A stretch of DNA of 64,000 nt from IMG/VR virus record IMGVR_UViG_3300025872_000051, positions 1 to 64,000 of that record. One strand, given 5' to 3'. Each line of letters opens with the position of its first letter. Position 1 is the stretch's first letter. A program made the translations under genes and the position numbers. The notes beneath the pieces are model-generated. The model saw nothing but the letters and a program-made list of their open reading frames with translations. It was not told where the DNA came from and ran no database searches. The stretch comes from a virus. Of the stretch, positions 8,460-24,803 are shown piece by piece.

Positions 8460-8460
8460 T

Positions 8461-8495
8461 AAAATAGCTCACCTCCAAAGTGTCCTAATAATGTA
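8461..8495 (+). repeat. 32-bp cassette-boundary repeat, copy 1
   Basis: AAAATAGCTCACCTCCAAAGTGTCCTAATAAT-GTA. Confidence 0.95.
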
Positions 8496-8510
8496 AGCAA
8501 CCATTCTTAG

Positions 8511-8648
8511 ATGGATCCTTTCAACGACAACTATCAAATTGAAGAGGAAGGTTACTTCAACTTTGTTGATGAAGATGACATCTTTATTGATGAAGAGTTT
8601 GATGACCAATCCTTCAACGAATACCTCAACTCTACGCAAGATTTCTGA
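8511..8648 (+). CDS. Very acidic 45-aa peptide
   Basis: Hand-translated MDPFNDNYQIEEEGYF...; 16 D/E and no K/R. Confidence 0.55.
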   Translation: MDPFNDNYQIEEEGYFNFVDEDDIFIDEEFDDQSFNEYLNSTQDF

Positions 8649-8650
8649 TT

Positions 8651-8839
8651 ATGACGCCCGAAACTTATACTTTCAGTGGTGATGCTGTTACCTTCCTTGG
8701 TTTGGTTGGTGTTGCTTCAACGCTTCTTATTGTTGTTACTTCTTTCCGTAGGTTCTTCAATAGTCCTTACAATGTTCGTGTGACACCTAAACAAGTGACC
8801 ACCGAACCTACCACTGAAACCGAAACTCCTGTATCCTGA
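8651..8839 (+). CDS. Small single-TM protein
   Basis: FLGLVGVASTLLIVV followed by RRFFNSPYN. Confidence 0.65.
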   Translation: MTPETYTFSGDAVTFLGLVGVASTLLIVVTSFRRFFNSPYNVRVTPKQVTTEPTTETETPVS

Positions 8840-8843
8840 ACAA

Positions 8844-9056
8844 ATGACTGAAACTGTGAACGTGCTGCCTCATCTGAACGAACTCAAAGAGATTTGGCGC
8901 AAGCAAGATTTCACCTTTACTAAACAACAACAGGAGGAATACGACCTTTTGCTTGCTGCACGTCGTGAACGTGTGAAATACTTTTACGATAATGATATGG
9001 TGTGTAAGATTAGTAAATCTGCTCAAGATAAACTTCGTGATGCTGAAGATAACTAA
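8844..9056 (+). CDS. Small hypothetical protein
   Basis: ORF track. Confidence 0.65.
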   Translation: MTETVNVLPHLNELKEIWRKQDFTFTKQQQEEYDLLLAARRERVKYFYDNDMVCKISKSAQDKLRDAEDN

Positions 9057-9081
9057 ATACTAGAAAAGTGTTTAGATGACG

Positions 9082-9735
9082 ATGAAGACCTTTCAGGAGT
9101 TTATGTCTATTTGCGAAGCGTCTGATGCTGATGCTGCCAAGCAACTTGGTTGGGGTGGTGGCGCCTCAATTAAGAAAACTGGAGAAGGTGGAAGAATCGG
9201 AAGAGAGCGTAAAAAGACAACTCCCGAAAGGCGTCGTATGAGAGCAGTCGGTGGGGGTAAAATGGAACCCGTTGACTATAAACCACGCAAGGATATTGGT
9301 CAGCAAAGAACAGCATCTGAGCGCCAACAACAACCAGAACAAGAGCGTGGAAGTGCTGAAGTAAAGCAATCTTATGCTGAAAAGGTAAAAGCAGAACGTA
9401 GAGCAGCAGCGCAAGCAAGAATTGCTGCTAAGAAAGGTGGTGGAGAAGCACCATCAGCAGCAAAACCAAAGGCAAAGGAAGCATCAGCAACTGCAACAAA
9501 ACTTTTATCTAAAAAGAAAGAAGAAAAACCAGCGCATCCTGACTATAAACCTCAGCAAGCGTCTGGTATGACTAGAGCAGAAAGAGATAGAGCAAGAAAT
9601 AAGGCAAAAAGTGAAATGCTAAAGCAAAGAAAAGCAAAACTCTTCGCAGATTTTAAGGAAACTCACGGTCGTTCACCAACTGCAAAAGAAAGAACTAAGT
9701 TGCTTGGTTTAGCTCATCAATCAATGAAAGGTTGA
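9082..9735 (+). CDS. Basic Ala/Lys/Arg-rich late protein with capsid-targeting-like N-terminus
   Basis: ACTAAATA at 9052; MKTFQEFMSICE; alternative start at 9076. Confidence 0.65.
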   Translation: MKTFQEFMSICEASDADAAKQLGWGGGASIKKTGEGGRIGRERKKTTPERRRMRAVGGGKMEPVDYKPRKDIGQQRTASERQQQPEQERGSAEVKQSYAEKVKAERRAAAQARIAAKKGGGEAPSAAKPKAKEASATATKLLSKKKEEKPAHPDYKPQQASGMTRAERDRARNKAKSEMLKQRKAKLFADFKETHGRSPTAKERTKLLGLAHQSMKG

Positions 9736-9742
9736 TTGAATT

Positions 9743-9777
9743 AAAATATCTCACCTCCAAAGTGTCCCTATAGTATA
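9743..9777 (+). repeat. 32-bp repeat, copy 2
   Basis: AAAATATCTCACCTCCAAAGTGTCCCTATAGT-ATA. Confidence 0.95.
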
Positions 9778-9791
9778 GGCACAACCACATT

Positions 9792-9989
9792 ATGAACCGA
9801 ATTGAAATCCAAAGAGCACTTTATGATGCTCGCAATGAGTATCTGAAGGCAAAGAAATCTGTAGAGTTCTGGACTCGTGAGATTGCTTTCCTGAAAGAAT
9901 GTGAGGATAATCTGGACAAACCTGCTGATTGGTTGTATAATGAAATGTTTGGTGATACTCCTATCGCTGAAGAAGTTTACGGAGGTTGA
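9792..9989 (+). CDS. Small hypothetical protein
   Basis: ORF track; first gene after repeat copy 2. Confidence 0.6.
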   Translation: MNRIEIQRALYDARNEYLKAKKSVEFWTREIAFLKECEDNLDKPADWLYNEMFGDTPIAEEVYGG

Positions 9990-10306
9990 TGATGGCAACT
10001 TGGAGAGCAGAAGTATTTGTCAACTCACAAGTTGGCAGGATTACAACGGAAGTAGAGGCAGCAACTGCATCTGGAGCACAGCAACAGATTTATGCTAAGC
10101 ACGGAAATGTTCAGCAGATTGTTAATCTTCGCCAAGTAAGTTCTGGTGGTGGAGGTTCTTCATTCAGTTCTGGAGATACTGAAGGACTTGTGTGGTTGCT
10201 TGGAATTGGATTTGTACTCTATTTGCTTGTAACTTACTGGTATATTGCTATTCCTGTCGCAGTTGTTCTTGGTATTCTCCTTTTTATGGGAATGTCAGAG
10301 GATTAA
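9986..10306 (+). CDS. Small membrane protein with a C-terminal TM hairpin
   Basis: Hydrophobic C-terminus; its TAA stop overlaps the start of repeat copy 3. Confidence 0.65.
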   Translation: MMMATWRAEVFVNSQVGRITTEVEAATASGAQQQIYAKHGNVQQIVNLRQVSSGGGGSSFSSGDTEGLVWLLGIGFVLYLLVTYWYIAIPVAVVLGILLFMGMSED

Positions 10307-10339
10307 AATAGCTCACCTCCAAAGTGTCCTAATACTAGA
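10305..10339 (+). repeat. 32-bp repeat, copy 3
   Basis: AAAATAGCTCACCTCCAAAGTGTCCTAATACT-AGA. Confidence 0.95.
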
Positions 10340-10341
10340 TA

Positions 10342-11583
10342 ATGCAACTTATGAACATTCAACTCCGTCCCCATCAAGAACGTGGCGTTGCTGCTATGCA
10401 ACAGCATAACAAAGGTCAAATCATTGTTCCTACTGGTGGTGGAAAGACGCTCAAGATGATCTATGATGCTCTGCGCGAGTTTCAATCTGAAACTCCTCAG
10501 ACCATTGTTGTAGTCGCTCCGCGTATTCTTCTTGCTGAGCAACTCTCTGCTGAGTTTCTGGAGTTTATTACTAACGCTAAGGTTTTTCACGTTCACAGTG
10601 GTGAGACGCATCACGAAAGTTCTACTCGTCCCCGTGAGATTTACAACTGGGTTAATGCTAATGCCGACAATCACAAACTGATTGTAACCACCTACAACTC
10701 TCTGTCACGTCTTCAAGTGGCACAGATTGATGTGGATACCATCTACTTTGACGAAGCACATAACAGCGTTCAGCGTCACTTTTTCCCTGCGACTGAGCAC
10801 TTCTCTGCTAACGCACGACGCTGCTATTTCTTCACTGCTACCCCCAAACATTCTCTTGCTGTGGGTAAACCTGGAATGAATGATGTTGCTGTTTATGGTC
10901 AGGTCATCTGCAAAGTTCCTGCTCCTGAACTTGTTGAAGGTGGTTACATTGTGCCCCCTAAAGTTATCGTCAAGCAACTGCCGATGGTAACTGGAAAGCA
11001 GACCAACTATGACCGCGATGCAGAGAACCTGCTGGAAACGATTGATGAGAACAGCGTCGGTAAGATCCTGATCTGTGCTAAGGCAACCAAGCAAATCGTT
11101 TCGCTTGTGTCTGAAACTGATTTCTGCTCTGAACTAGAGGATCGCGGTTACTCTTGGATGTATATCACCTCCAAGACGGGTGCTATCATTGATGGTCAGA
11201 AAGTGAACCGCGAGGTATTCTTTGACACCCTATCTGCTTGGGGTAAGGATAACGACAAGAAGTTCGTTGTTCTACACCATAGCATCCTCGCTGAGGGTAT
11301 CAACGTCAGCGGTCTGGAAGCGGTACTCTTCCTTCGCAATATGGACTTCATTGGTATCTCTCAGACCATCGGACGTTGCATCCGTTTGCATCACGATGAT
11401 GCGAAAGGTATGCGCGATGGACGTATCCAACCTGGCAACCTTGCTCAGTATAGCAAATCGTTCGGTCTGGTTTGTGTACCTGTGTACTCTAAGGTTGGTA
11501 TCAGCACCGCCCGTGCAGTTCAGTCGGTTGTTGATACGATTTTCCAGAAGGGGGAACCTGCCGTGTCGGTGGTTCGCAGGTGA
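10342..11583 (+). CDS. Superfamily 2 (DEAH, ResIII-like) helicase
   Basis: LRPHQ, PTGGGKT, DEAH, TATP, LAEGIN, QTIGRCIR. Confidence 0.9.
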   Translation: MQLMNIQLRPHQERGVAAMQQHNKGQIIVPTGGGKTLKMIYDALREFQSETPQTIVVVAPRILLAEQLSAEFLEFITNAKVFHVHSGETHHESSTRPREIYNWVNANADNHKLIVTTYNSLSRLQVAQIDVDTIYFDEAHNSVQRHFFPATEHFSANARRCYFFTATPKHSLAVGKPGMNDVAVYGQVICKVPAPELVEGGYIVPPKVIVKQLPMVTGKQTNYDRDAENLLETIDENSVGKILICAKATKQIVSLVSETDFCSELEDRGYSWMYITSKTGAIIDGQKVNREVFFDTLSAWGKDNDKKFVVLHHSILAEGINVSGLEAVLFLRNMDFIGISQTIGRCIRLHHDDAKGMRDGRIQPGNLAQYSKSFGLVCVPVYSKVGISTARAVQSVVDTIFQKGEPAVSVVRR

Positions 11584-11587
11584 GACC

Positions 11588-11691
11588 CGCTGAGAACCCA
11601 GTCCCCATCAGGGTTCAAACCCTGATTTTTCTGTAATTTCACCACAACCGACCTAGAACCCATCCGCCGCAACCAAATCAACGATTTTTTC
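11588..11691 (+). repeat. 104-bp intergenic element, copy A
   Basis: Aligns without gaps to 19246-19349. Confidence 0.85.
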
Positions 11692-11700
11692 AAAAGTGTA

Positions 11701-12231
11701 ATGAACAACGAAACTTTTCTATGTCCTTGTTGTAGTTCTGAGAAAACATCAGACCATTTTGTGCTATCAGGCAGAAAGTTTCCTCTCATTTCAGTATGCA
11801 ATGAGTGTTCTGATGAGCACTTCGTTGAGAAGGTTGATTGCACTTGTTCCGTATGCAAAAGGAAACTACCTCACACCTATTTTCAACACTATCGCACAAG
11901 ATTCAAGAAGAATGGTATGCGATTGCGAGTAAATACAAATTGTAAGGATTGCTCACGGAAAGAAAGTTCTATCGTTTCTAAACTCAAGAGGGACAATCCT
12001 CCACCATCTTACTTGACTTCCTGCCCACAATGTAGTAAAGTTTGTTATGAAAAGGTAGAGGACATTCCTGAGGGTGTTGATGGTACAAATGGACCTTGGC
12101 AATGTGACCACGATCATAAAACAAAACAGTTTCGTGGATATTTGTGCAAGCGTTGCAATACAGGAACTGGACTAATCGGTGATAATGTAGAATACTTCCA
12201 AATTGCATTAGAGAATAAAAAAGAACGATGA
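11701..12231 (+). CDS. Endonuclease VII-like His-Me nuclease with N-terminal Zn fingers
   Basis: CPQC...CDHDHKTKQFRGYLCKRCNTGTG; several CxxC pairs. Confidence 0.8.
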   Translation: MNNETFLCPCCSSEKTSDHFVLSGRKFPLISVCNECSDEHFVEKVDCTCSVCKRKLPHTYFQHYRTRFKKNGMRLRVNTNCKDCSRKESSIVSKLKRDNPPPSYLTSCPQCSKVCYEKVEDIPEGVDGTNGPWQCDHDHKTKQFRGYLCKRCNTGTGLIGDNVEYFQIALENKKER

Positions 12232-13073
12232 ATCTCAATCAAATTATTACATCTGATAACGTTGAGTATCTAAAAACTCTTCCTGATGAATGTATTGATT
12301 TGATTGTAACTTCCCCTCCCTATGATGAACTCAGAGATTACAATGGATATACTCTAGACCTTCACAGTTTGGGTGAGCAACTTCTTCGCGTCTTGAAGGA
12401 TGGTGGAATCTGTGTGATGGTAATACAAGATTCTACGAAAGATTTTGCTAAATCTCTAACGTCATTTCGCACGATTGTTGATTGGTGCGATAACATTGGA
12501 TTTCGTTTGTTTGAGTGCAACATATATCACAGACAAGGAACTGAGGGTGCTTGGTGGACTAAAAGGTTTAGAGTGGATCATGAATATATGCCCATATTCT
12601 TGAAGGGTAGGAGACCACAATACTTTGACAAAGAGAATATCAAAATACCATCAAAGCACGCCAATAAGGTTATGACTGGTGCTAACATTCGCACTAAAAA
12701 TGGTAAAACTGGTTCTCGCAAAGTTAAAATCAATCCAACAAAATGCCCAGGAACTGTGATGACATTTGGTAATACTTGTGGTGGAGAAAGTAAGTTAAAA
12801 AGTCAGCATCCCGCAGTATTTCCCAATATGTTAGCGTATGATATGATAGAATGTTTCTGTCCACCAAACGGTGTGGTTCTTGATCCATTCAATGGAAGCG
12901 GCACTACAACTCTAGCAGCAAAGTGTCTAGGTAGAAACTATATTGGAATAGACATTTCTGAAGAGTATTGTAACATTGCTGTTCAGAGATTGCACACTGA
13001 AACGATAACCAGAAAAAAGGTAGAAACTACAAATCAACTTATAGGATTGGAGCAATTTATTAGTTATGATTGA
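12228..13073 (+). CDS. DNA methyltransferase, beta class (SPPY, probably N4-cytosine)
   Basis: IDLIVTSPPY...HPAVFP...VLDPFNGSGTT. Confidence 0.9.
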   Translation: MNLNQIITSDNVEYLKTLPDECIDLIVTSPPYDELRDYNGYTLDLHSLGEQLLRVLKDGGICVMVIQDSTKDFAKSLTSFRTIVDWCDNIGFRLFECNIYHRQGTEGAWWTKRFRVDHEYMPIFLKGRRPQYFDKENIKIPSKHANKVMTGANIRTKNGKTGSRKVKINPTKCPGTVMTFGNTCGGESKLKSQHPAVFPNMLAYDMIECFCPPNGVVLDPFNGSGTTTLAAKCLGRNYIGIDISEEYCNIAVQRLHTETITRKKVETTNQLIGLEQFISYD

Positions 13074-13242
13074 AGGATTCATTATTGGTAAAGGTGACTA
13101 TGCTGCCGTTCCTTTCGGTGAGCAACTGATGATAATCTATCAGGGTGAGCAACTCAAAGTATGCAAGACCGAAGCATCAGCACGAAAGTTTATTGTGGAT
13201 CATAAAAAGGGTAAATCCCAGGCACAACTTCCTATAGAATAA
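13066..13242 (+). CDS. Small hypothetical protein (58 aa)
   Basis: Hand-translated MIEGFIIGKGDYAAVPFG...; its stop overlaps repeat copy 4. Confidence 0.6.
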   Translation: MIEGFIIGKGDYAAVPFGEQLMIIYQGEQLKVCKTEASARKFIVDHKKGKSQAQLPIE

Positions 13243-13275
13243 AATAGCTCACCTCCAAAGTGTCCTAATAGTATG
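13241..13275 (+). repeat. 32-bp repeat, copy 4
   Basis: AAAATAGCTCACCTCCAAAGTGTCCTAATAGT-ATG. Confidence 0.95.
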
Positions 13276-14196
13276 ACGACCAAACAAATGCAGAACAAAC
13301 ATCTAGAGCACCCTGAAGATTGTATCCTGACTGGTGATCTGTCAGTTCTGGATTGGTTCTCTGAATCTGATAGTTCTATCAGCATCAAGATGGATGGTGC
13401 TCCTGCTATTGTGTGGGGAACAAATCCTCAGAATGGTAAGTTTTTTGTTTGTACAAAAGCAGCATTTAACAAGCAAAAGATTCGTCTTTGCTATAATGAG
13501 GATGACATCTTCACACATTTCGGTGGACAACCTCGCGTAACGCAAATCCTCATTTTCTGTCTGGATTTCCTTCCTCGCACTAATCAAGTGTTGCAAGGTG
13601 ATTGGATTGGTTTCGGCAGTGGGTTGGATACATTTACTCCGAACACGATTACCTACAAGTTTCCTGCACCAGTTCGTCAGGATATTATCATTGCACCTCA
13701 CACAATCTACAGCGGTGCTGATGATATTCGTGAGATGACTGCTGCTCCTTTGATGAGCAAACTCATCAGCACTAAGCATTGTCTTTTCGTGCAACCTCAG
13801 GTCTCTCTTAATCCTTTCCGTGAGGATTTGGAGGATGTGTGTAACTTTGCAAAGCAAATGTCTACGCTGTGTGAGTTTGTGAGCGACAAGAAAGCATCAC
13901 AAATTAAAAAAGAGATCAACGCTTGCATCCGTGAGCAAAAGGTCATTGATGAGGATGAAATTGCAGAAAAATGTGATTGTGATGTGAATGTCCTGCGTCT
14001 TTGGAAGTTGGTTAAATCTATCAAGGATGATTTGTTCCTGTTCATTCACGAAGAGGATGACATTGAGTGTTACATTCACGATGAGCAATCATTCCACGAA
14101 GGTTATGTGATTTCCAACAAGTATGGGACACTTAAAGTAGTGGACCGCGAAGTATTCTCTCACGCCAACTTCACCGTCAGCAAGAATTGGGGTTGA
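13273..14196 (+). CDS. DUF6267-like protein with a ligase/nucleotidyltransferase-like KxDG motif
   Basis: NKHLEHPED...IKMDGAPAIVWG...HEGYV...KVVDREVFS. Confidence 0.65.
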   Translation: MTTKQMQNKHLEHPEDCILTGDLSVLDWFSESDSSISIKMDGAPAIVWGTNPQNGKFFVCTKAAFNKQKIRLCYNEDDIFTHFGGQPRVTQILIFCLDFLPRTNQVLQGDWIGFGSGLDTFTPNTITYKFPAPVRQDIIIAPHTIYSGADDIREMTAAPLMSKLISTKHCLFVQPQVSLNPFREDLEDVCNFAKQMSTLCEFVSDKKASQIKKEINACIREQKVIDEDEIAEKCDCDVNVLRLWKLVKSIKDDLFLFIHEEDDIECYIHDEQSFHEGYVISNKYGTLKVVDREVFSHANFTVSKNWG

Positions 14197-14199
14197 GAT

Positions 14200-14234
14200 A
14201 AAATAGCTCACCTCTAAAGTGTCCTAGTAGTATG
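14200..14234 (+). repeat. 32-bp repeat, copy 5
   Basis: AAAATAGCTCACCTCTAAAGTGTCCTAGTAGT-ATG. Confidence 0.95.
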
Positions 14235-14393
14235 AGCACAACCAAAATGACTGAAACTGATCTCCTCACTCTCCGTGAGCAACTTCAGGAAGATTTGATG
14301 TCTTGGCGTGATGTAAATGATCTGCCCGAGTTTGTTGATGAAGAACTCTGCGACATCGTTGTTTATGCTTTCTCCAAGTTCCTGAATAAGTGA
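14232..14393 (+). CDS. Small acidic protein (53 aa)
   Basis: Hand-translated from the repeat ATG. Confidence 0.55.
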   Translation: MSTTKMTETDLLTLREQLQEDLMSWRDVNDLPEFVDEELCDIVVYAFSKFLNK

Positions 14394-14749
14394 TTATGAC
14401 TATCACTCTCGCTGAATACGCTGCACAGAAAGATGCAAGCAACACAATTTACCTTAACATCGTTAAGTATGGTTTGATGCTGTGTGATGCTCTCCAGCAA
14501 GATGCACCCGATGGTTACTTCTATGAACTGGATAGTTCTGGTCGCAAGTATCATAAAATCTGGATGCACATTGGAGACCGTCGTGATAGCATCCACGCCT
14601 TTATTGATAAGAAAACTGGTTCAGTATTGAAACCTGCAAGTGTAAAGGCACCTGCGAAGGGTGAGCGTTACAATCTGCTCTCTATTCCTTCCCGTGAGAA
14701 GTGTTTTGAGAACGCAACCTGGCACGGTTCTTATTTGTACGCTCGTTGA
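14390..14749 (+). CDS. Conserved phage protein (RKYHKI...HAFIDKKTG..KPAS.KAPAKG.RYNL)
   Basis: ORF track; motif widespread in phages. Confidence 0.7.
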   Translation: MIMTITLAEYAAQKDASNTIYLNIVKYGLMLCDALQQDAPDGYFYELDSSGRKYHKIWMHIGDRRDSIHAFIDKKTGSVLKPASVKAPAKGERYNLLSIPSREKCFENATWHGSYLYAR

Positions 14750-14751
14750 TT

Positions 14752-14786
14752 GAAAGGGGGGACGCTGAAAGTGTCCTAGTAGTATG
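14752..14786 (+). repeat. 32-bp repeat, copy 6 (chimeric, different left half)
   Basis: GAAAGGGGGGACGCTG-AAAGTGTCCTAGTAGT-ATG. Confidence 0.85.
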
Positions 14787-14903
14787 AACACTCCAAACTG
14801 GAAACACAACTCTGGTAAGCATAAACGAACCAAGGGTATGTGTAAGGGTAAAATCAAATCCCGCAAGCAATCTCTTCAATCACTCAAACTGAAACTGAAA
14901 TGA
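14784..14903 (+). CDS. Small basic peptide (39 aa, MNTPNWKHNSGK...)
   Basis: Hand-translated from the repeat ATG. Confidence 0.55.
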   Translation: MNTPNWKHNSGKHKRTKGMCKGKIKSRKQSLQSLKLKLK

Positions 14904-15065
14904 CCCTCACGCACATTAACGGCAAAAAACTCAAACAGTTTGCTATTACTGCCCCTGGATTTGAGTTTCCTGATTATGTTTATGCAGAAACAAGAGAGCA
15001 AGCAATTCTAGAGTGGGCAGATACTATTGTTTCTGTTGATGTAACTGAAATTGAAGAAGATTGAA

Positions 15066-15293
15066 ATGACTATTCCTAACTACAACGCCATTTCTTTTCA
15101 TTCTGAAGAAGAACATCAGGCAGCACTTTATGATGCTTGTTTGTTGATTGTCAATACCTACAACCAAACAGATATGCTGGATGGTTATTGTTTTGACCAC
15201 GGAAAAAATGAAACTATTACTTCATACGATTTTATGAAGTTTGCGCGTCGTATTATCAACAATTATGATTGCAACCCAAATGACTGTACCTAA
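15066..15293 (+). CDS. Small hypothetical protein
   Basis: ORF track 15051; ATG 15066 preferred. Confidence 0.55.
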   Translation: MTIPNYNAISFHSEEEHQAALYDACLLIVNTYNQTDMLDGYCFDHGKNETITSYDFMKFARRIINNYDCNPNDCT

Positions 15294-15425
15294 TCTCACA
15301 AGTCAGCACATAGATTTTAATGCTTGGTTGGAAGAATGTCCTGTTGAATGGTTCAAAAGTGCAAAACCAAGTGTAAATGGTTCTGCAACTTATGAGTTCT
15401 TTTTTGATGCTGTGACTGAGGAAGA

Positions 15426-17702: not shown

Positions 17703-17735
17703 AATAGCTCACCTCCAAAGTGTCCTAGTAGTATG
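17701..17735 (+). repeat. 32-bp repeat, copy 8
   Basis: AAAATAGCTCACCTCCAAAGTGTCCTAGTAGT-ATG. Confidence 0.95.
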
Positions 17736-17972: not shown

Positions 17973-18006
17973 TTTCTTACACTCAACTCAACAACTTTAA
18001 CTCTTT

Positions 18007-18210
18007 GTGACTGATAAAGAACAACAAATCCCTAAAGATGGCGAACGTTGCATTAACGTGCGTCGTCAAGATAATGGTTTGTGGGAGGTTCACATCCAAG
18101 TTTTCAAGTTCAACAAACTTCGAGGTGATTCTTATTGGAACACTTTGGCGTATAGGACATATCAAAAAAAATCTGATGCTGAACGTTATGCTGCAAGATT
18201 TGTGAACTGA
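18007..18210 (+). CDS. Small hypothetical protein
   Basis: ORF track. Confidence 0.5.
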   Translation: MTDKEQQIPKDGERCINVRRQDNGLWEVHIQVFKFNKLRGDSYWNTLAYRTYQKKSDAERYAARFVN

Positions 18211-18378
18211 TGAACAAAACCTTCGGTTCTTCTGCTATTCAAGTTTCCTGATTATGAAAACCAACTCTAACTCTTCTTGGATTGATGAACTGATTAAATG
18301 GGAAAATGCTCATCCTGAGTATCAACCATTTGAGGAGGATGAAAACTCTCAACGCCGACAAAACCAGAAAGAAGATTA

Positions 18379-18579
18379 TTGATTATGACTACTGATTTAC
18401 TCAAACTCTATAAACTTTGCATCCTTGATTTACTGATTGCGATTGATGAGGATGTAGTAGATTGGAGGAACTATCCTAAACTTTGGGAAGCAATCCGATT
18501 TGCTGATACTACTCTTGACCTCTGGGCAGGAGATAATCTCAAACAGATGAAAGAACAACTTTGGAATGAACTGAAATGA
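18379..18579 (+). CDS. Small hypothetical protein
   Basis: ORF track. Confidence 0.55.
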   Translation: MIMTTDLLKLYKLCILDLLIAIDEDVVDWRNYPKLWEAIRFADTTLDLWAGDNLKQMKEQLWNELK

Positions 18580-18733
18580 AAAACTATCGCGTGATGGTTG
18601 AAACTAAAGATGGATGTTGTACTATTTGGTATGAGAAATCCAACGCAAAGACCGCAGACAAACTTATCCTAAATCGCGTCTATAATCAACTCTGCGGTCT
18701 CAACATTAAAGAAATCTCTGTTATTCCTTCTGT

Positions 18734-19006
18734 TTGATTATGTACCGCACACTTTCTGAACTTCGCAACAGCATTAACAAACTGATTGAGCAACAAGGTG
18801 AAGACGCACCTTGCGCTGCATTTGTATTCACCAAAGAAGATGTTTTTGAGTTTGGTGAGAATGATGAGGAAAATCATTTTCCTATTGTTTTCACTCAAGA
18901 TGTTCTCTGTGATGTAGGAGGATGTTCCTACATTTACGAACAGGTTGGTGAAATGATTGACGATTCAATCCGCCTTCGTAAGAAACTCCCACTCTACGCT
19001 AACTGA
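18734..19006 (+). CDS. Hypothetical protein
   Basis: ORF track. Confidence 0.6.
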   Translation: MIMYRTLSELRNSINKLIEQQGEDAPCAAFVFTKEDVFEFGENDEENHFPIVFTQDVLCDVGGCSYIYEQVGEMIDDSIRLRKKLPLYAN

Positions 19007-19008
19007 TT

Positions 19009-19251
19009 ATGTCTGACCTGCAAGAGTTCTACGATTATGTTCTCTCTTTCTATGGTGCTGATGGATTGTATCCTATGGGTGCAACTCTGAGCGTCATCAA
19101 GCAAGCAACATCCACACACATTAAGATACTTAAACTGAAAGGAAATGAGTTCTGTGGTGATAGTATTGACCGCGAATGTGTGCGGGATTTGTTAATCTCA
19201 AAATATGGTCTGACCTTCCCAACTGCTCCCGTCTCACTTGCGTCTCGCTGA
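19009..19251 (+). CDS. Conserved cyanophage protein (FYDYVLSFYG...GDSIDRE)
   Basis: ORF track. Confidence 0.65.
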   Translation: MSDLQEFYDYVLSFYGADGLYPMGATLSVIKQATSTHIKILKLKGNEFCGDSIDRECVRDLLISKYGLTFPTAPVSLASR

Positions 19252-19349
19252 GAACCCTGTCCACCACTAGACCAAAAACCTGATTTTTCTGCAATTTCAC
19301 CTGACAGACCCCATAGGTCATCTGCTGCAGAGAAATTAACGATTTTTTC
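19246..19349 (+). repeat. 104-bp intergenic element, copy B
   Basis: Aligns without gaps to 11588-11691. Confidence 0.85.
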
Positions 19350-19513
19350 CAAACTCTAAACAATCCAATGAAATACATCGTTCAACTCTATCAAGGTGGC
19401 AAAGTGTTCACTGAGGAAGTGTATGCTAGCACACCCAAAGATGCCCGTGAAACTGCACTCATTCGCAACCCAACTTGTAAGGTAGTTGGAGTGAACGCAA
19501 AGTTCAACTGATT

Positions 19514-19548
19514 AAAATAGCTCACCTCTAAAGTGTCCTAGTAGTATG
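19514..19548 (+). repeat. 32-bp repeat, copy 9
   Basis: AAAATAGCTCACCTCTAAAGTGTCCTAGTAGT-ATG. Confidence 0.95.
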
Positions 19549-19716
19549 ACTGACACTTTCACCGTTCGTTTCTGGTCTGAATCTCTTGATTCTCCAGAAT
19601 ACATTGGACCTTTCTACTCTGAAGAAGATGCCCAAGATTATTGCGATGCCCGCAACGGTTCGCTATCTCTAAGCGGTATTCCTTCCTGGGTTGCAAACTA
19701 CTCTATCGTTGACTGA
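19546..19716 (+). CDS. Small acidic protein (56 aa)
   Basis: Hand-translated MTDTFTVRFW...YIGPF.SEEDAQ. Confidence 0.6.
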   Translation: MTDTFTVRFWSESLDSPEYIGPFYSEEDAQDYCDARNGSLSLSGIPSWVANYSIVD

Positions 19717-19718
19717 TT

Positions 19719-19922
19719 ATGCTCTTCCAAGTTACTGAAATTGAGTTTGATTTTGAGATGGAGGATGATGAATATCCTTCAGATGATTATCAACAAGCAC
19801 TCACAGAAGAAACAATCGGTCAAATCTGGGAAGCAGATGATGAGGATGATCTAGTTGAAGAGATTACCTGTGCGACAGGTTGGTGCATTAAATCCATTGA
19901 TTATCGTCACATTCTGAAATGA
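19719..19922 (+). CDS. Highly acidic small protein
   Basis: ORF track; EMEDDE...EADDEDDLVEE. Confidence 0.65.
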   Translation: MLFQVTEIEFDFEMEDDEYPSDDYQQALTEETIGQIWEADDEDDLVEEITCATGWCIKSIDYRHILK

Positions 19923-20055
19923 GAATTGTCCTTCTCTTCGCTACACTTTTCGTTGGTATTCAGTTCGGAGCAAATGCTATCGCAACCGTGAGTGAGTATC
20001 AAGAACAGCAAGCAGATCGCTTCTGTGAAATCAACCCCAACTACTGCAACGCAAA

Positions 20056-20274
20056 ATGAACATTACTCAAGAACAATACGATCTACTGGTTGCAAAATAC
20101 GCCAGCGACATTGTAGAAGGAATGGATATGGACAGTTTGATAGAGTTTGCGTGTGATACGATTGAAGAAAATCTCCGCAAGATGCACCCCAATTCTGATG
20201 AACTTCTCCAAGAGATTTCAGAGGTTTATGGTGAAGATTATGCGGAAGAGTTCGTGCAAAGTGTAATTGAATGA
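20056..20274 (+). CDS. Acidic small protein
   Basis: ORF track. Confidence 0.6.
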   Translation: MNITQEQYDLLVAKYASDIVEGMDMDSLIEFACDTIEENLRKMHPNSDELLQEISEVYGEDYAEEFVQSVIE

Positions 20275-20555
20275 CACGCAGAAGTTTAACACTCAAACCG
20301 CCTTGCAAAGTGAAAACAATTCTCCTGATTTTCACCGTTGCGTTTATACTCTCGCCAGGAGTTCGTAACGTTACCGCTAACACATTGCACACCGTCGCTG
20401 ATATTATTCAACCACAATGATTGAAACTGATTTCTTTATTCTCTCACAAGAACAGTATCAGCAAACTCTCCAAGATGCTGCCATTGAAGGTGTATCTGTT
20501 GACTACTATTTGCTGGAGTTTTGTACTGTTGAAGGTGAGTGGGTTACAGTGGAAT

Positions 20556-20590
20556 AAAATAGCTCACCTCTAAAGTGTCCCAATAGTATG
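20556..20590 (+). repeat. 32-bp repeat, copy 10
   Basis: AAAATAGCTCACCTCTAAAGTGTCCCAATAGT-ATG. Confidence 0.95.
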
Positions 20591-20836
20591 AACGACCAAA
20601 CCTCCTACACTTCTCCTCACACTGGTAACATTTATCAGTGTATTGTTGAGAAGAATTGGCGTCAATCTTGGGACGCAAATGGTAATGCTTTCAAGAAGTA
20701 TTACAACACTTATAGTTTCTTTCTGAATGGAGAGTTTATCACTAAAACTCTTCACAATGATGAAAAGACTCTAAGCACAACGTTTGGAGAGTTGGAGGGA
20801 GTTTATACTCCTTGGATGACATCTGCAAGGGATTAA
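20588..20836 (+). CDS. Hypothetical protein filling a single-gene cassette exactly
   Basis: ATG from repeat copy 10, TAA overlapping repeat copy 11. Confidence 0.65.
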   Translation: MNDQTSYTSPHTGNIYQCIVEKNWRQSWDANGNAFKKYYNTYSFFLNGEFITKTLHNDEKTLSTTFGELEGVYTPWMTSARD

Positions 20837-20869
20837 AATTACTCACCTCCAAAGCGTCCTAGTAGTATG
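20835..20869 (+). repeat. 32-bp repeat, copy 11
   Basis: AAAATTACTCACCTCCAAAGCGTCCTAGTAGT-ATG. Confidence 0.93.
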
Positions 20870-21154
20870 AACACAAACGATCTCCTAGACAGCATCAAAC
20901 TCTCTGAGCAACTGGCGCTGGAAAACTATCAACAACGCAACGGTGTTGTTGATTATCGCCTTGACGGAGTTTGCAATCATTACTTCGCAAAGTATGATTG
21001 GAATGGTAAGCGTGACGGTGAGATTTGTCTCACTTGTAAAGTTTCCAAAACCGTAAAAGGTTCGCTCCGTTACACTTTCCAGATTGACGGTAAGCGTATC
21101 GCATACAAAGAGATTTGGACTAAGTTTAACTCTCTTGGTGCATTTCGCATCTGA
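20867..21154 (+). CDS. Hypothetical protein
   Basis: Starts at the repeat ATG. Confidence 0.65.
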   Translation: MNTNDLLDSIKLSEQLALENYQQRNGVVDYRLDGVCNHYFAKYDWNGKRDGEICLTCKVSKTVKGSLRYTFQIDGKRIAYKEIWTKFNSLGAFRI

Positions 21155-21191
21155 TTTTTCTCACAAACTCATTCATTCTTAAGTAACACAA

Positions 21192-21458
21192 ATGACGATG
21201 ACTTCTCAAACGATTACTCTTGAACAGTTCCACGATTTGCTTTCTGATGCTTATGCTGTGAGTGTGAACGATACTCTATACTTTGTAGGGTATGATACAG
21301 ATGACAATCCTTACATTTCCGACAATGATGGGCAGGATTATGTTGACCTTTCTACTGTAGATGGTGATATTGAAGTTCACAAAAACTATGTGTTCTTTCA
21401 TGTGAACGGTGAACCTCTTCAGATGGTTTTTCTCAACATTAAACCGCTTAATTTCTGA
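21192..21458 (+). CDS. Acidic hypothetical protein
   Basis: ORF track. Confidence 0.6.
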   Translation: MTMTSQTITLEQFHDLLSDAYAVSVNDTLYFVGYDTDDNPYISDNDGQDYVDLSTVDGDIEVHKNYVFFHVNGEPLQMVFLNIKPLNF

Positions 21459-21659
21459 ACTGAAATGACTAGCACTTTTTATCTTGTTCGCGCTGAGAAT
21501 CGCCGTGAACCTGAATCATATGTTTGCGGTCTTTATGTAACAGAAACTGAAGCACAAGAGCGAGTTGATTCTCTAAAAGAAGAATACGATTTTGCCTGGT
21601 TTGATGACATTCAAGTCGGTGATCTAGATCTCTGTAATCGCTGAAATCTCCAAGCGATT

Positions 21660-21694
21660 AAAGTTACTCACCTCCAAAGTGTCCCAGTAGTATA
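21660..21694 (+). repeat. 32-bp repeat, copy 12
   Basis: AAAGTTACTCACCTCCAAAGTGTCCCAGTAGT-ATA. Confidence 0.93.
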
Positions 21695-21719
21695 ACCACC
21701 ACACTTTCCCAACCACAAA

Positions 21720-22031
21720 ATGCGTAAGATTGAAGCACAAATGAACCGCGCAATCTCCCAAGAGATTGATTGGCAAAAAGACAACACTCAAGTTATCAAC
21801 ATTGAAGGCGTAAGTTTCGTCTATCTGTATAGCAATCTGATTGCTATGGTTGGTGATACTTGGTTGGAACTGTTTGATGGCGGACATCAAACAAATACCA
21901 CCAAATCGCGTCTCAATGCTATTCTTGCAGAGCACGGAACTGGTGAGCGTGTTTATCAAAAAGATTTCACTTGGTTTGTATCAACATCCAACGGTGAAGT
22001 TCCTTTCAACAATGGTATCAAACTTTCCTGA
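21720..22031 (+). CDS. Conserved phage protein (MRKIE..MN.AI...TTKSRLNA)
   Basis: ORF track. Confidence 0.7.
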   Translation: MRKIEAQMNRAISQEIDWQKDNTQVINIEGVSFVYLYSNLIAMVGDTWLELFDGGHQTNTTKSRLNAILAEHGTGERVYQKDFTWFVSTSNGEVPFNNGIKLS

Positions 22032-22228
22032 TGACTGAATCTCAAATCCTTCAACTTCGTTTTCTTTGTAGTGATGTGATTTTCGATTTTGAGTTTACAC
22101 AATTCCTGATTGATAATCCACAAGACAAAGACAAAATCAAACAAAAAGCGCAACAATACTACAACAAACTTCAAGCAATTCTTGGTGATGCCTATGTCCC
22201 TGATTCTGAAATGTCTCTCCCGTGCTGA
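22031..22228 (+). CDS. Small hypothetical protein
   Basis: ORF track. Confidence 0.55.
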   Translation: MTESQILQLRFLCSDVIFDFEFTQFLIDNPQDKDKIKQKAQQYYNKLQAILGDAYVPDSEMSLPC

Positions 22229-22496
22229 GGAGTTAGCAAACGAAATCAATGGTGATTTGTTCTATGTACCTGAAGAAGATGTCCAACAACTTATCTCCAA
22301 ACTCACCGAAGATAATGTAGAAGAGATTGCATCAGAACTCGCAGATTTAGCATACTGGTTTAACTAAAATGTTCGTTATTCGTTACTTCCGTCCTTATAC
22401 TCAAGAATGGAATACTCAGTCATTCAGTACACTTGAAGAAGCACAATCTATGATTGACTTCTATCGTTCTTGCGGTTCCCCTGCTAATCTTATCAA

Positions 22497-22772
22497 ATGA
22501 AAGTCGCTCCAATTTCTTTCGCCAAAGCGTCCAATCGTTCCAACTATTATTGTACTTTAATCAACAATCTGTATAAGAAAGGTTATACGACTCAACAGAT
22601 TGCAGATGAGTTAGGTATGGGAAAGACATCAGTTCGTTATTACTATTATGGTCTACATAACTGTTCTGAAGCACAGTATCATTGGAAAAATGCTTTCAAT
22701 GCAAATAAAGAACTCGGATACATTCAGCACAGTTTAACACAAATTCGCGTCGGTACTTCTGTTCCTATTTGA
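22497..22772 (+). CDS. Helix-turn-helix DNA-binding protein
   Basis: KGYTTQQIADELGMGKTSVRYY. Confidence 0.7.
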   Translation: MKVAPISFAKASNRSNYYCTLINNLYKKGYTTQQIADELGMGKTSVRYYYYGLHNCSEAQYHWKNAFNANKELGYIQHSLTQIRVGTSVPI

Positions 22773-22919
22773 TGTTATGACAATCACAAGTTTCTATAAC
22801 GGAGAATCGTATTCTAAGTTTGATTCGTATTATGAACCAGAGCACGATGATGTAATGGATGCAGATGATTATGAACGTAGAGAGTATTATCGTAATGGAT
22901 GGAATGAAGAGCAATACGA

Positions 22920-23068
22920 TAGACAAAGGTTCTGAGTTATGATATAATGAAGAGGAAGGGAGTTTGCCTCTATTCAGTAAACAAAGTGACTTCCGTAGAG
23001 TATAGATAATTTCCAATAAAAGGTGGTTGGGTGTATAAGAGAGGGACTGGTAATCCCTCTCTTTTTTT
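22920..23068 (+). ncRNA. Candidate small structured RNA with its own promoter and terminator
   Basis: TAGACA-17 bp-TATAAT (22920-22948); no credible ORF; terminator at 23037-23068. Confidence 0.45.
23037..23068 (+). terminator. Intrinsic terminator between convergent units
   Basis: AAGAGAGGGA-ctggtaa-TCCCTCTCTT followed by a T run. Confidence 0.8.
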
Positions 23069-23570
23069 ATGTCAACAAACGACGTAATCCGTATTGCATA
23101 ATGTAACTGTCTAATGCACTTTCAATGATAGTATTGAAGAATGTATTGTTATCAGGAACTGGTAATCCTTTTCTTATAGAAGCAGAGTAAACGTTCTTTA
23201 TTTTTTCTGCTACAAAATCGTCAACAATATAACCATCAAACTGCTTTTGTTTCTTATCCTCTTTCCATTCAATGTTCTCTAATCTGTTATCACTTTTATC
23301 ACCATTCTTATGTTCAACATCGCGTGAAATGTTGTCAGTAGGAATGAAAGCAAGTGCCATCAATCTATGAACAGAAAAGTTCTTTAATCGTCCTGTATTA
23401 TCCGTTAATCTTACAAATCTATCTGCTGATGTTTTGCTCTTCCAACCAGGAGAAAGTTTCTTTGATTTGTTATTCTTAAAGGACCAAACATTACCCTCTG
23501 TGTCTATACCATAATCAGGGTAACATTTCAGTGCTTCAACATTAGAGAAGTGCTTGATTCTTGTCTCCAT
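23067..23570 (-). CDS. NUMOD4/HNH (I-HmuI-like) homing endonuclease or a derivative
   Basis: Y.I...GNVWS...VHRLMALAFIP...HKNGDKSDNRLENIEW. Confidence 0.8.
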   Translation of the reverse strand: METRIKHFSNVEALKCYPDYGIDTEGNVWSFKNNKSKKLSPGWKSKTSADRFVRLTDNTGRLKNFSVHRLMALAFIPTDNISRDVEHKNGDKSDNRLENIEWKEDKKQKQFDGYIVDDFVAEKIKNVYSASIRKGLPVPDNNTFFNTIIESALDSYIMQYGLRRLLT

Positions 23571-23739
23571 TTGTGTGTTTTTTCCTGTCTGATTTATGTA
23601 GGGAAAAAGAGATTTCCACTTGTGGAAAACGTGAAATGAGTTATAATGCGTGAAATAAAGGTGTTGTGAAAAGTGTATAGAATGTGAGGGTATTCTCTCT
23701 GTATTCTTATAAATGTGCTGAGACCTTGTTATCTAAGCG

Positions 23740-23870
23740 AGCATACACAAAGGAACGCGATTTGTCAACCCCCAAAGTCACAAAATCCTCACAAGACCCC
23801 CGCAAAATCCCCCGGAGCGCCCCTAAATACTCCTCAGGTACTTGACACTTACCCCAAGACATTATAGAAT
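23740..23870. promoter_or_regulatory. Divergent sigma70-like promoters plus a late promoter
   Basis: Minus strand TTGACA(23768-63)-17 bp-TATGCT; plus strand TTGACA(23842)-17 bp-TAGAAT; CCTAAATA at 23822. Confidence 0.65.
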
Positions 23871-23897
23871 GTTTCCATAGCACACAGGAGCGTACTT

Positions 23898-24071
23898 ATG
23901 TCAGTTGTGTATCACCAGGCACAGAAGCAGCGTTATAGGGTAACTCTAGAACTCAATGTCCTATCCGACTTCGATCCACACCAAATTGACTGGGAGAAAC
24001 TATTCAAATTGGAACCTGCAGAGAGGTGTGAAGCATACGTGGAGGATCTAGATTGCCCCTCTAAGTGGTAA
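23898..24071 (+). CDS. Conserved small cyanophage protein (57 aa, RVTLEL.V..DFDPHQIDW)
   Basis: Hand-translated; AGGAG Shine-Dalgarno site upstream. Confidence 0.7.
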   Translation: MSVVYHQAQKQRYRVTLELNVLSDFDPHQIDWEKLFKLEPAERCEAYVEDLDCPSKW

Positions 24072-24083
24072 AATAGGCACTTT

Positions 24084-24137
24084 TAGTTTTGATAGCATAA
24101 CCCCCCCTAAATACCCCTAGTTATGCTATCAAAACTA
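24084..24137 (+). promoter_or_regulatory. Perfect 18-bp inverted repeat with a late promoter in the loop
   Basis: TAGTTTTGATAGCATAAC / GTTATGCTATCAAAACTA with CTAAATA between; right arm ends at ATG 24137. Confidence 0.8.
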
Positions 24138-24316
24138 TGAGACCATTAAAGTATAAGAATTTGGGCAATGGAGTGATGATTCGCGTCCCTGAAATCGTCA
24201 CCACAATTCTACCACAACTGCAAGACGTTATGCAACAGTTAGAGGATAACGGTGAGGATAGTCGTGAGGTGATAATGCAGATTCTCAGTGATGTTGAGGA
24301 TCGCATCAATTCATAG
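24137..24316 (+). CDS. Small protein, possibly a ribbon-helix-helix regulator (59 aa)
   Basis: Hand-translated MRPLKYKNLGNGVMIRVPE... Confidence 0.5.
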   Translation: MRPLKYKNLGNGVMIRVPEIVTTILPQLQDVMQQLEDNGEDSREVIMQILSDVEDRINS

Positions 24317-24320
24317 TATT

Positions 24321-24355
24321 ATAATAGCTCACCTCTAAAGTGTCTCAGTAGTATA
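24321..24355 (+). repeat. 32-bp repeat, copy 13
   Basis: ATAATAGCTCACCTCTAAAGTGTCTCAGTAGT-ATA. Confidence 0.93.
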
Positions 24356-24411
24356 AGGGCGCCACACTCTACACGGCGTTCTTATCACAAACACTTTCAC
24401 TTTTCGTTGTT

Positions 24412-24756
24412 ATGAATTCCGCCCAAATCCTGACGTTCACTGAAGCATTTCCTCCCGCTCATAAGTTGACTGAAACTCTGATGAACATTGACTATAAAAA
24501 GCACCTGAACACCTATATGGATGGTGTTATGAATGTCTGTGCATTTATCGCTGTGATCGCTACTCTGATCGCCTCTAAGTGGCAGGAGAATGATGTTACT
24601 GAGCGTCTGCAAATCGCTGCTCTGAACGTTATCACCTGGACCCGCAACGTTGCAGTCCCCGCTGTGAAGAACGCAGCAACTGTAACTTATAACGCAGGTC
24701 AGAAAGTGCGTGAGGTTTATGATGTGATCTCTTCGCCTCTGTTCATTACTCTTTGA
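24412..24756 (+). CDS. Hypothetical membrane-associated protein in a single-gene cassette
   Basis: ORF track; hydrophobic VCAFIAVIATLIA. Confidence 0.65.
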   Translation: MNSAQILTFTEAFPPAHKLTETLMNIDYKKHLNTYMDGVMNVCAFIAVIATLIASKWQENDVTERLQIAALNVITWTRNVAVPAVKNAATVTYNAGQKVREVYDVISSPLFITL

Positions 24757-24768
24757 GTTGTAAGCATT

Positions 24769-24803
24769 ATAATATCTCACCTCTAAAGTGTCTCAGTAGT
24801 ATA
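24769..24803 (+). repeat. 32-bp repeat, copy 14
   Basis: ATAATATCTCACCTCTAAAGTGTCTCAGTAGT-ATA. Confidence 0.93.

Follow-up and report, generated by a model that had tools for sequence, protein, structure and literature searches.

A repeated, same-orientation intergenic element of T4-like cyanophages as a candidate gene-start module and recombination joint

Why does one short sequence stand again and again between small, unrelated genes over 16 kb of a phage genome, always in the same orientation? This question is raised by a 64,000-nucleotide (nt) stretch of DNA, here called the window, of the 76,161-bp IMG/VR record IMGVR_UViG_3300025872_000051, which is a fragment of a T4-like cyanomyovirus (Kyanoviridae). 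The repeated element, a unit of about 38–42 bp and of fixed length, occurs in this window between positions 8458 and 24803. A first reading made from the DNA letters alone (the sequence-only reading) had proposed that the element is a combined expression signal and recombination joint, which forms an integron-like, apparently integrase-free array of host-takeover or anti-defence genes. Our analysis leans, with modest confidence, towards the view that each copy is a gene-start module (a promoter together with its leader) of a cyanomyovirus clade and that the copies jointly serve as joints for homologous recombination. The element itself is real, widespread and apparently undescribed in print. 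Searches with its sequence strings and for cyanophage early promoters returned no published description of it; the transcription-start study of Syn9 (Doron et al. 2016) may show related motifs.

Numbering of the element starts at the A of ATTAAA (position 1). Its core, CTCACCTCYAAAGYGTC, has 13 exact matches in the window, all on the + strand and spanning 8468–24792, while 0.36 matches are expected in shuffled sequence and none of 100 shuffles reaches 14. Scanning the complete record returned the same 13 core copies and no additional one. Distances between copies range from 279 to 2936 bp and the internal length is identical in every copy. The number of full copies, the single strand, the lack of indels, the spacing and the confinement to this interval, all given by the sequence-only reading, thus hold for the window and for the 76-kb record.

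Positions 1–10 of the element are A/T-rich (ATTAAAATAG in the window, ATTAAAGTTA in most relatives) and include at positions 3–8 a -10-like hexamer of the form TAnnnT (TAAAGT or TAAAAT). The hexamer is followed by the box CTCACCTCY at positions 11–19, by AAAGYGTCC at 20–28 and by TAnTRT at 32–37. The triplet at 36–38 is ATG in six of the 13 full copies; the remaining seven have GTA, ATA or AGA there. One further copy, noticed earlier at 14752, is indeed a chimera: its 3' half, AAAGTGTCCTAGTAGTATG, is as in the full copies and its 5' half, GGGGGGACGCTG, is different, being the box type of phage S-SM2. The seven copies said to carry the ATG of an open reading frame (ORF) at a fixed site are six full copies (ORFs of 53–307 codons) and this chimera (39 codons). 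The TAA at element positions 3–5 is, as claimed, the in-frame stop codon of the upstream ORF in five copies, those that the sequence-only reading had placed at 10305, 13241, 17701, 20556 and 20835. The copies are as follows.

8458–8495, + strand: copy 1, GTA class without a built-in ATG; first of the array, directly after the stop of ORF 8049–8459
9740–9777, + strand: copy 2, ATA class; gene start 17 nt downstream, at 9792
10302–10339, + strand: copy 3, diverged 3' end; its TAA is the stop of ORF 9989–10306; heads the helicase cassette
13238–13275, + strand: copy 4, built-in ATG at 13273 (DUF6267 gene); a hot spot for extra cassettes, which come in 14 distinct sizes among the relatives
14197–14234, + strand: copy 5, built-in ATG at 14232
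14749–14786, + strand: chimera with a 5' box of the S-SM2 type, GGGGGGACGCTG, ahead of the common 3' half; its ATG, at 14784, opens 39 codons; the only copy that folds into a hairpin
16387–16424, + strand: copy 6, ATA class; left border of the methyltransferase cassette, a cassette that several relatives lack
17698–17735, + strand: copy 7, built-in ATG at 17733; the methyltransferase gene stops at its TAA; right border of the methyltransferase cassette
19511–19548, + strand: copy 8, built-in ATG at 19546
20553–20590, + strand: copy 9, built-in ATG at 20588; left border of the one-gene cassette
20832–20869, + strand: copy 10, built-in ATG at 20867; ORF 20588–20836 stops at its TAA
21657–21694, + strand: copy 11, ATA class; gene start at 21720
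24318–24355, + strand: copy 12, ATA class; its 5' part is ATTATAAT
24766–24803, + strand: copy 13, ATA class; last of the array; gene start at 24850

More than 114 IMG/VR stretches contain the exact core, mostly with several copies per stretch; this count is of the listed matches and is a lower bound. A looser anchor yielded 408 distinct copies, on which the conservation counts given below are based. Among cultured phages, SynMITS9220M01 carries the same element with the same box in 11 copies within 18.7 kb, and S-B05, S-B43, RN05-S and RB11-B were matched by BLAST with a long query from SynMITS9220M01. A BLAST search of the cultured phages with one 35-nt copy gave no match, but this longer query did find the carriers. 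A sister element, present in phage S-SM2 in about 11 copies, has an identical 3' half but the box GGGGGGTCGCC, and a few IMG/VR copies carry the box TGGGCCCCTG or others. The element was not found in Syn9, S-PM2, P-SSM2 or Bellamy, so the motif scan of relatives that had been suggested divides them into many carriers and these four phages without it. In the complete genomes of SynMITS9220M01 and S-SM2 every true copy falls within one 14–16-kb region on one strand. The array character is therefore real and not an artefact of the fragment. Cellular genomes (596 Gb; 185,579 genomes) contain 74 single core matches, where our own estimate for chance is about 280, and no clusters; a host origin of the element was rejected on this ground.

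At the same gene junctions Bellamy has ordinary hairpins and TGTATATTA-type promoters with Shine-Dalgarno leaders. In Bellamy 48000–77000 (locus L129 of our comparison set, in which the L-numbers denote loci compared with the window, mostly IMG/VR relatives) a repeat, seen for example at 12480–12523, 21690–21732 and 22700–22745 of that locus, consists of a hairpin, TGTAT(A/T)TTA, AAAGAGTCAAAGGAAC and ACCAC-ATG. This is a more classical build, like that of the promoter-early stem-loop (PeSL) cassettes discussed below, in a close relative without the element.

Half of the roughly 400 copies have a real start codon built in at a fixed place: the ATG at positions 36–38 belongs to the element and starts the gene. 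Of the 128 distinct ATG-bearing copies, 126 can be judged, and in 120 of these the frame set by this ATG stays open for 40 codons or more, compared with only 2–4 for the other frames. The triplet co-varies at positions 36 and 38, being either a start codon (ATG in 128 copies, GTG in 5) or GTA/ATA. Many homologues of the DUF6267 protein start with MKNTH(L/I)(E/Q)HPED at the element's ATG and have no alternative start. Where the ATG is missing, the real gene start lies 15–21 nt downstream. A second in-frame ATG, mostly five codons on, is present in 45% of the ATG copies, so that the ATG and non-ATG forms interconvert. Genes for otherwise unrelated proteins share the nucleotides of their first codons (A..AACAC). 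Shine-Dalgarno-like sequence precedes only 4 of the 45 array genes, in agreement with the earlier remark that the ORFs at the seven built-in ATGs lack such sites. Because the element's ATG is used as gene start, the element must be transcribed from at least position 36.

Where, then, does the transcript begin? The element occupies the whole gap between genes. The upstream gene ends inside it or at most 12 nt away in about 75% of copies, and the TAA at positions 3–5 is a stop codon in 29%. TAnnnT is found at positions 3–8 in 305 of 408 copies (75%) compared with a background of 2%, and the conservation profile is -10-like, with T8 invariant in ATG-type copies and 1.7–1.9 bits at A4/A5. T32, A33 and T37 are strongly conserved in all classes. 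An intrinsic terminator ends 4–15 nt (in one case 35 nt) upstream of 8 of 356 related copies, and seven of these eight are ATG-type. In two relatives (L082 and L106) the terminator-preceded DUF6267 frame has the ATG at position 36 as its sole start, so the transcript starts between the terminator and position 36, where the only TAnnnT is the hexamer at 3–8. Another relative, L044, carries an extra cassette built as motif, gene, terminator and motif. Taken together, the hexamer profile, the terminator-preceded copies and the L044 cassette point to a -10 element at positions 3–8 and a start near A14–C16. The structural genes in the window are preceded instead by ATAAATA-type sequences that resemble late promoters.

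In the mechanism that we propose, host RNA polymerase with its primary sigma factor would read TAAAGT or TAAAAT at positions 3–8 as the -10 element, with no -35 element, and transcription would begin about 6–8 nt downstream of the hexamer, within the CTCACC box. AAAGYGTCC followed by TAGTAGT would form a leader of about 22 nt without a Shine-Dalgarno sequence. This leader may position the ribosome on the AUG at 36–38 or, in the other half of the copies, on an AUG 15–21 nt further on. The build of the element, the use of its ATG, its distribution and the motif-to-motif differences in cassettes are direct observations. That it acts as a promoter is probable, and this role, like the start site and the way in which recombination proceeds, is inferred from them. 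Of the combined expression signal seen by the sequence-only reading, the gap-filling position, the -10-like hexamer, the built-in start codon and the terminator-adjacent copies stand as observations, and the promoter is suggested by them.

Three other ways to place the start were discarded. With the -10 element at positions 32–37, the start codon of ATG-type copies would precede the transcript. A -10 element at positions 19–24 (YAAAGY) is unlikely, the last base being C in many S-SM2 copies and in some CTCACC copies (e.g. 20832). A leaderless mRNA from A36 has no TAnnnT at the right distance.

Two further features of the putative 5' region were observed. On the mRNA strand, box positions 11–18 read CUCACCUCC, which we take to be eight bases of the 16S rRNA 3' end (UCACCUCC, the anti-Shine-Dalgarno region). 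Under the proposed start site these bases would be the first of the mRNA. The box variants CTCACCTTC and TTG disrupt the CCUCC core, and the match to 16S rRNA may be a coincidence. The AAAGUGU of the shared half is complementary to an ACACUUU a few codons into the gene (window 19530–19575 and 21676–21715), which would give a hairpin with the AUG in its loop. Such complementarity between positions 20–28 and the first codons occurs in about 12% of copies, roughly threefold over control windows and with weak covariation, and was therefore rejected as a general feature.

Several points weigh against the promoter model. A conserved -35 element was not found; the sequence upstream of the copies is that of the previous gene and is without information content, and a scan with the sigma-70 consensus flags no copy of the element. 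In the S-SM2-type sister element the box is not preceded by a TAnnnT, and thus the -10 model fails to cover the whole family. The putative leader is the very part that is common to all box types, which hints at a function at the RNA level. The box is lineage-specific and yet better conserved than the flanking genes (65–85% nucleotide identity), for which the promoter model has no explanation. Finally, terminators are few (8 of 356) and most copies abut the upstream stop codon, so read-through could also supply the mRNA.

These points lead to the alternative that the element works only in RNA. Long read-through messages from ordinary promoters further upstream would then cover the array, and the repeat would be a translation-initiation region and/or a binding or cleavage site of a RegA/RegB-like phage protein, with no promoter of its own; we regard this as possible but rather doubtful. 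Transcription from position 36 onwards is certain since the ATG is in use, the closeness of three-quarters of the upstream genes leaves no room for a terminator, and the array genes are tightly coupled (TGA-N2-3-ATG junctions) and without Shine-Dalgarno sequences. The stretch just ahead of the AUG is the one shared by all box types, and the S-SM2 type, which lacks the -10-like hexamer, can form a short hairpin. However, some copies directly behind strong terminators head a conserved gene with the element's ATG as sole start, a cassette with a terminator between two motifs exists (L044), and the information content of the 5' hexamer is distributed as in a -10 element, with its last T invariant, its second A strong and TAnnnT in 75%. 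A conserved RNA fold is also missing in the CTCACC type: the 13 copies of this type fold no better than shuffles (z from -1.65 to +0.9), only the chimera reaching z = -2.05. A scan of the window with Rfam 15 gave no match at the gathering score, and a permissive scan of 8000–25500 gave two chance-level matches (E 0.2–0.6), neither of them on the repeat. The complementarity of positions 20–28 to the first codons, in 12% of copies, does not make good this lack. An activator-dependent promoter of the T4 middle type would use the other conserved hexamer. In that case TAnTRT at 32–37 would be the -10 element, the box at 11–19 (about -33 to -25) would be the site of a phage activator in place of the -35 element, and transcription would start at about position 44. 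T4 middle promoters (a MotA box at -30 and a -10 element, read through sigma appropriation by AsiA and MotA) do resemble the element in having a phage-specific box before TAnnnT, no -35 element and genes of early or middle type. T32, A33 and T37 are strongly conserved in every class, the box ends 12 nt before the hexamer, and 12 nt is also the spacing from MotA box to -10 element in T4. The real starts of the non-ATG copies would have leaders of 7–13 nt, and a lineage-specific box would suit a co-evolving activator. We nevertheless consider this model very unlikely, because in half of the copies, terminator-preceded ones included, the sole start codon at 36–38 lies upstream of such a start, and the hexamer at MotA-like spacing overlaps it and is unusable. 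The spacer is invariant in the element but not conserved in T4. No MotA homologue (PF09114) was found in the record, S-SM2 or SynMITS9220M01, in a search that had no positive control, and T4-like cyanophages are reported to be without motA and asiA, as cited in PMC5780444.

A further reading, also on the tentative side, is a two-part code. The half shared by the clade (AAAGYGTCC-N3-TAGTAT with the built-in AUG) would have a conserved reader, whereas the private box (CTCACCTCY in this phage, GGGGGGTCGCC in S-SM2 and TGGGCCCCTG in others) would be read by a lineage-specific phage factor. As part of this same tentative reading, that factor might be an activator, a repressor that shuts transcription off at its start site, or a protein specific for the first bases of the mRNA. 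If true, the two-part code would be a cyanophage counterpart of sigma appropriation. Cassettes would be exchangeable but expressed only in phages with the matching reader, and the array would be a private plug-and-play expression platform at one genome locus.

The second half of the favoured view, that the copies of the gene-start module are joints for homologous recombination, was approached by aligning window positions 7001–26500 with the IMG/VR loci by BLASTN, with random gene junctions as the expectation. Homology blocks start and stop at copies of the element. Among 23 unique precise absences, seven run from motif to motif with one copy left, where 2.2 are expected (P = 0.005), and at such empty sites the flanking alignments overlap by 25–60 bp inside the single copy. 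The intervals concerned are these.

16387–17698: motif-to-motif absence of the methyltransferase cassette, missing in L028, L045, L053, L059 and others
14197–16387: motif-to-motif absence
14197–17698: motif-to-motif absence
10302–17698: motif-to-motif absence
20553–20832: motif-to-motif absence of the one-gene cassette
20553–21657: motif-to-motif absence, in two versions

Extra cassettes in the relatives give the reverse picture. Fifteen of 20 unique ones sit at a motif, with one copy on either side (expected 6.2, P = 7e-5), and 14 of these 15 are at copy 13238, ahead of the DUF6267 gene, with differing sizes from 291 to 3276 bp. New gene adjacencies joined by the motif are seen in two loci (L013 and L080). 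The first genes behind the motif number 389 and fall into 89 unrelated families. The chimeric copy is as expected from a crossover between two box types within the half that they share. The proposal of a recombination joint is thus borne out by motif-to-motif presence and absence with one copy at the empty site and by many different cassettes at one motif. The comparison of breakpoints in relatives, which the sequence-only reading had called for, shows an excess at the motif; cassette content and order are not invariant and breakpoints do not avoid the repeat. As identical modules of about 40 bp stand in the same orientation ahead of unrelated genes, homologous recombination of the phage could swap whole expression-ready cassettes. 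Exchange between copies within one genome or between co-infecting relatives would lead to deletion, insertion and re-ordering.

This account, too, has its counter-evidence. Neither end lies in a motif for 11 of the 23 precise absences. The block with the endonuclease VII-like and methyltransferase genes is a clean 1.36-kb indel (11701–13063) without motif ends, missing in 10 relatives, and looks like a homing-type insertion. One site dominates, with 14 insertions at a single copy, the breakpoint events are not phylogenetically independent, and recombination is deduced from genome comparison only. The element is therefore one joint among several and not the sole one. Could it be no joint at all but an expression signal only? 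Breakpoints would then coincide with the repeat because it marks the border of a transcription unit, and genes would be exchanged by homing endonucleases and illegitimate recombination. The off-motif absences, the clean indel, the single insertion site and the at least six homing-endonuclease-like genes in 25 kb would all be expected. However, this is unlikely to be the full account, since empty sites retain exactly one copy with alignments overlapping within it, as is the signature of exchange inside a repeat, the motif excess over the gene-junction expectation is significant, and the chimera joins two box types in the shared half. For PeSLs the same mechanism is experimentally supported (PMC2839356). 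A further rival is a true integron-like system, in which the repeat would be an attC-type site served by a dedicated recombinase encoded in the unsampled 65% of the genome. The array does share with integrons (intI, attI, attC and the promoter Pc) its single direction, its short unrelated cassettes, its repeated site and its presence/absence polymorphism; it is confined to one genome region, and single-gene cassettes fill repeat-to-repeat intervals. However, the element is directly repeated and lacks the imperfect inverted repeats that mark attC, as well as a hairpin structure, it holds a gene start codon and a promoter-like hexamer, its cassettes seem to bring their own promoter and start codon in place of one Pc, and backbone genes are interleaved. 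T4-like phages also have an efficient homologous recombination system of their own. No tyrosine recombinase (PF00589) was found in the 76-kb record or in the complete genomes of S-SM2 and SynMITS9220M01, while all 14 control genomes were positive. A true integron is thus close to refuted. As for the label integron-like and integrase-free, the array and the lack of an integrase stand, but the fit is loose, with no attC-type inverted repeat, apparent own promoters and about half of the indels off the motif.

The closest known counterpart of the element is the PeSL cassette, described in the T4-type phages RB49/phi1, T4/PST and KVP40/nt-1 (Arbiol et al. 2010, PMC2839356; Comeau et al. 2014, PMC4122927). 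Both are repeated regulatory motifs in one orientation, in hyperplastic regions of T4-like genomes, and are flanked by small genes mostly of unknown function. In both, indels or replacements between relatives end in the motif, there is no dedicated recombinase, and homologous recombination between copies has been proposed. The PeSL, however, has a full sigma-70 consensus (-35 and -10) and an adjacent stem-loop, whereas the element has no -35 and mostly no stem-loop; its box is lineage-specific, its conserved leader has no Shine-Dalgarno sequence, the start codon often lies inside it, and in complete genomes it is limited to one region. In the 'ORFanage' study of cyanophage S-PM2, PeSLs were sought and judged unlikely (PMC4503421), and S-PM2 is also without the element. 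The analogy drawn by the sequence-only reading is apt in location, orientation, cargo and breakpoint behaviour, and the element is best filed with the PeSL kind, though it is differently built.

Promoters of single-subunit RNA polymerases (T7/T3/SP6) are similar in their long, near-invariant sequence with a shared and a lineage-specific part, a start inside and short leaders. T4-like cyanophages, however, use the host polymerase. No T7-like RNA polymerase (PF00940) was found in the fragment or in the two complete carrier genomes, S-SM2 and SynMITS9220M01, in a search without a positive control. A phage RNA polymerase hidden in the giant proteins was also considered and dropped, as these match gp7-like (YHYH, baseplate wedge) and DUF4815 families and have no DxDxD motif. 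Halovirus HF2 is reported (PMC8707807) to have classes of near-identical intergenic repeats with promoter activity. The likeness lies in near-identical intergenic repeats of a tailed virus; HF2, however, is an archaeal virus with promoters of the TATA type.

T4-like cyanophages are among the most abundant marine viruses, and the regulation of their early genes and the acquisition of small accessory genes (host range, counter-defence) are poorly understood. A portable gene-start module would explain how a foreign gene that has recombined into the genome is expressed at once, and why accessory genes accumulate at a single locus. Hundreds of uncultured relatives carry the module, as do three or more cultured lineages (SynMITS9220M01; S-B05 and relatives; S-SM2 with the sister form), and the cultured carriers make it testable at the bench. 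It is also a potential natural and very short expression part for the engineering of marine Synechococcus and its phages. If the element hides new biology, this is most likely to be found in its lineage-specific box.

The array lies in a variable small-gene region upstream of gp25/gp6/gp7, syntenic with S-SM2 at 42–61 kb. ORF 28499–30427 is gp6 (72% identity to S-SM2 and Bellamy), and baseplate genes of the gp25/gp6/gp7/gp8 type follow downstream of the array. An ORF of 3996 amino acids (aa) is the giant gp7 of the group and is followed by gp8-like and DUF4815 proteins. CheckV estimates the completeness of the record at 35%. The record has a collinear backbone in common with S-SM2, SynMITS9220M01 and Bellamy (genes at 8844, 9076, helicase 10342, DUF6267 13273, 14396, 19368, 21720, 23898 and 26195), and most of the remaining array genes are absent from these three phages. 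Genes of the array that bear on its cargo are listed here.

10342–11583, + strand: superfamily-2 helicase (ResIII/DEAD/Helicase_C), a backbone gene with 60–63% aa identity to S-SM2, SynMITS9220M01 and Bellamy
11701–13073, + strand: endonuclease VII-like gene (11701–12231) and N6/N4 DNA methyltransferase gene (12228–13073), the 1.36-kb block missing in 10 relatives, with breakpoints outside the element
13273–14196, + strand: DUF6267 protein (phrog_455), a backbone gene that begins at the element's ATG
15586–16083, - strand: HNH/NUMOD homing-endonuclease-like gene inside the array
16441–17702, + strand: phrog_6927 protein (16441–16980) and N6/N4 DNA methyltransferase (16947–17702), a cassette exactly between two copies; where it is absent (L028, L045, L053, L059 and others) one copy is kept
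20588–20836, + strand: one-gene cassette of 82 aa that fills a repeat-to-repeat interval; missing in L011, L064 and L111
23067–23570, - strand: HNH endonuclease gene inside the array

ORF 20588–20836 does occupy one repeat-to-repeat interval exactly, as had been noticed. The claim of unrelated cargo stands in part: a helicase, an endonuclease VII-like protein and two N6/N4 methyltransferases are recognised, but a restriction-modification pair is not supported. ORF 16947–17702 is indeed an N6/N4 DNA methyltransferase; its partner 16441–16980, however, matches only phrog_6927, a family without an assigned function, and no nuclease family, with no match in Pfam, NCBIfam or the PDB, and the pair was rejected for lack of a recognisable nuclease. 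The helicase and DUF6267 genes are conserved backbone genes and not mobile cargo, and a host-takeover or anti-defence nature of the cargo finds no support.

The G+C content is 40.5% in the array (8400–24900), 33% in the structural region (28400–64000) and 36% in the first 8.4 kb. The value of the array resembles those of S-SM2, SynMITS9220M01 and Bellamy (40–42%), as though it had been exchanged with cyanophages of higher G+C content. Six homing-endonuclease-like genes lie within 24 kb (425–1111, 4543–5235, 6699–7313, 11701–12231 and, on the - strand, 15586–16083 and 23067–23570); by kind they are three NUMOD3/phrog_314 paralogues, one endonuclease VII-like gene and two HNH genes on the opposite strand. 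The gp7-like baseplate protein (30429–42419; 3996 aa) has a YHYH domain at residues 1138–1332 and no Pfam match over most of its length; the gp7 span of S-SM2 codes, per its annotation, for about 4150 aa.

A second repeat family of about 125 nt has two copies in the window (11581–11700 and 19231–19367) that are 81% identical. ARAGORN detects no tRNA in it. In the first copy a T-run comes directly after a T-arm-like hairpin, GGGTTCAAACCC; the end of both copies is GATTTTTTC, and in the first this is followed by AAAAGTGTAATG. The repeat precedes the endonuclease VII gene and ORF 19368, and relatives of it with long terminator hairpins occur in two loci (L070 and L111). Among the small genes upstream of the array, ORF 3457–3981 codes for a protein of 174 aa whose C-terminus resembles a MazE/AbrB-type DNA-binding domain (E = 3e-5, just short of the Pfam cut-off), making it a possible regulator. 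Finally, positions 2873–3163 hold a gene for a plant-type 2Fe-2S ferredoxin, a petF-like auxiliary metabolic gene.

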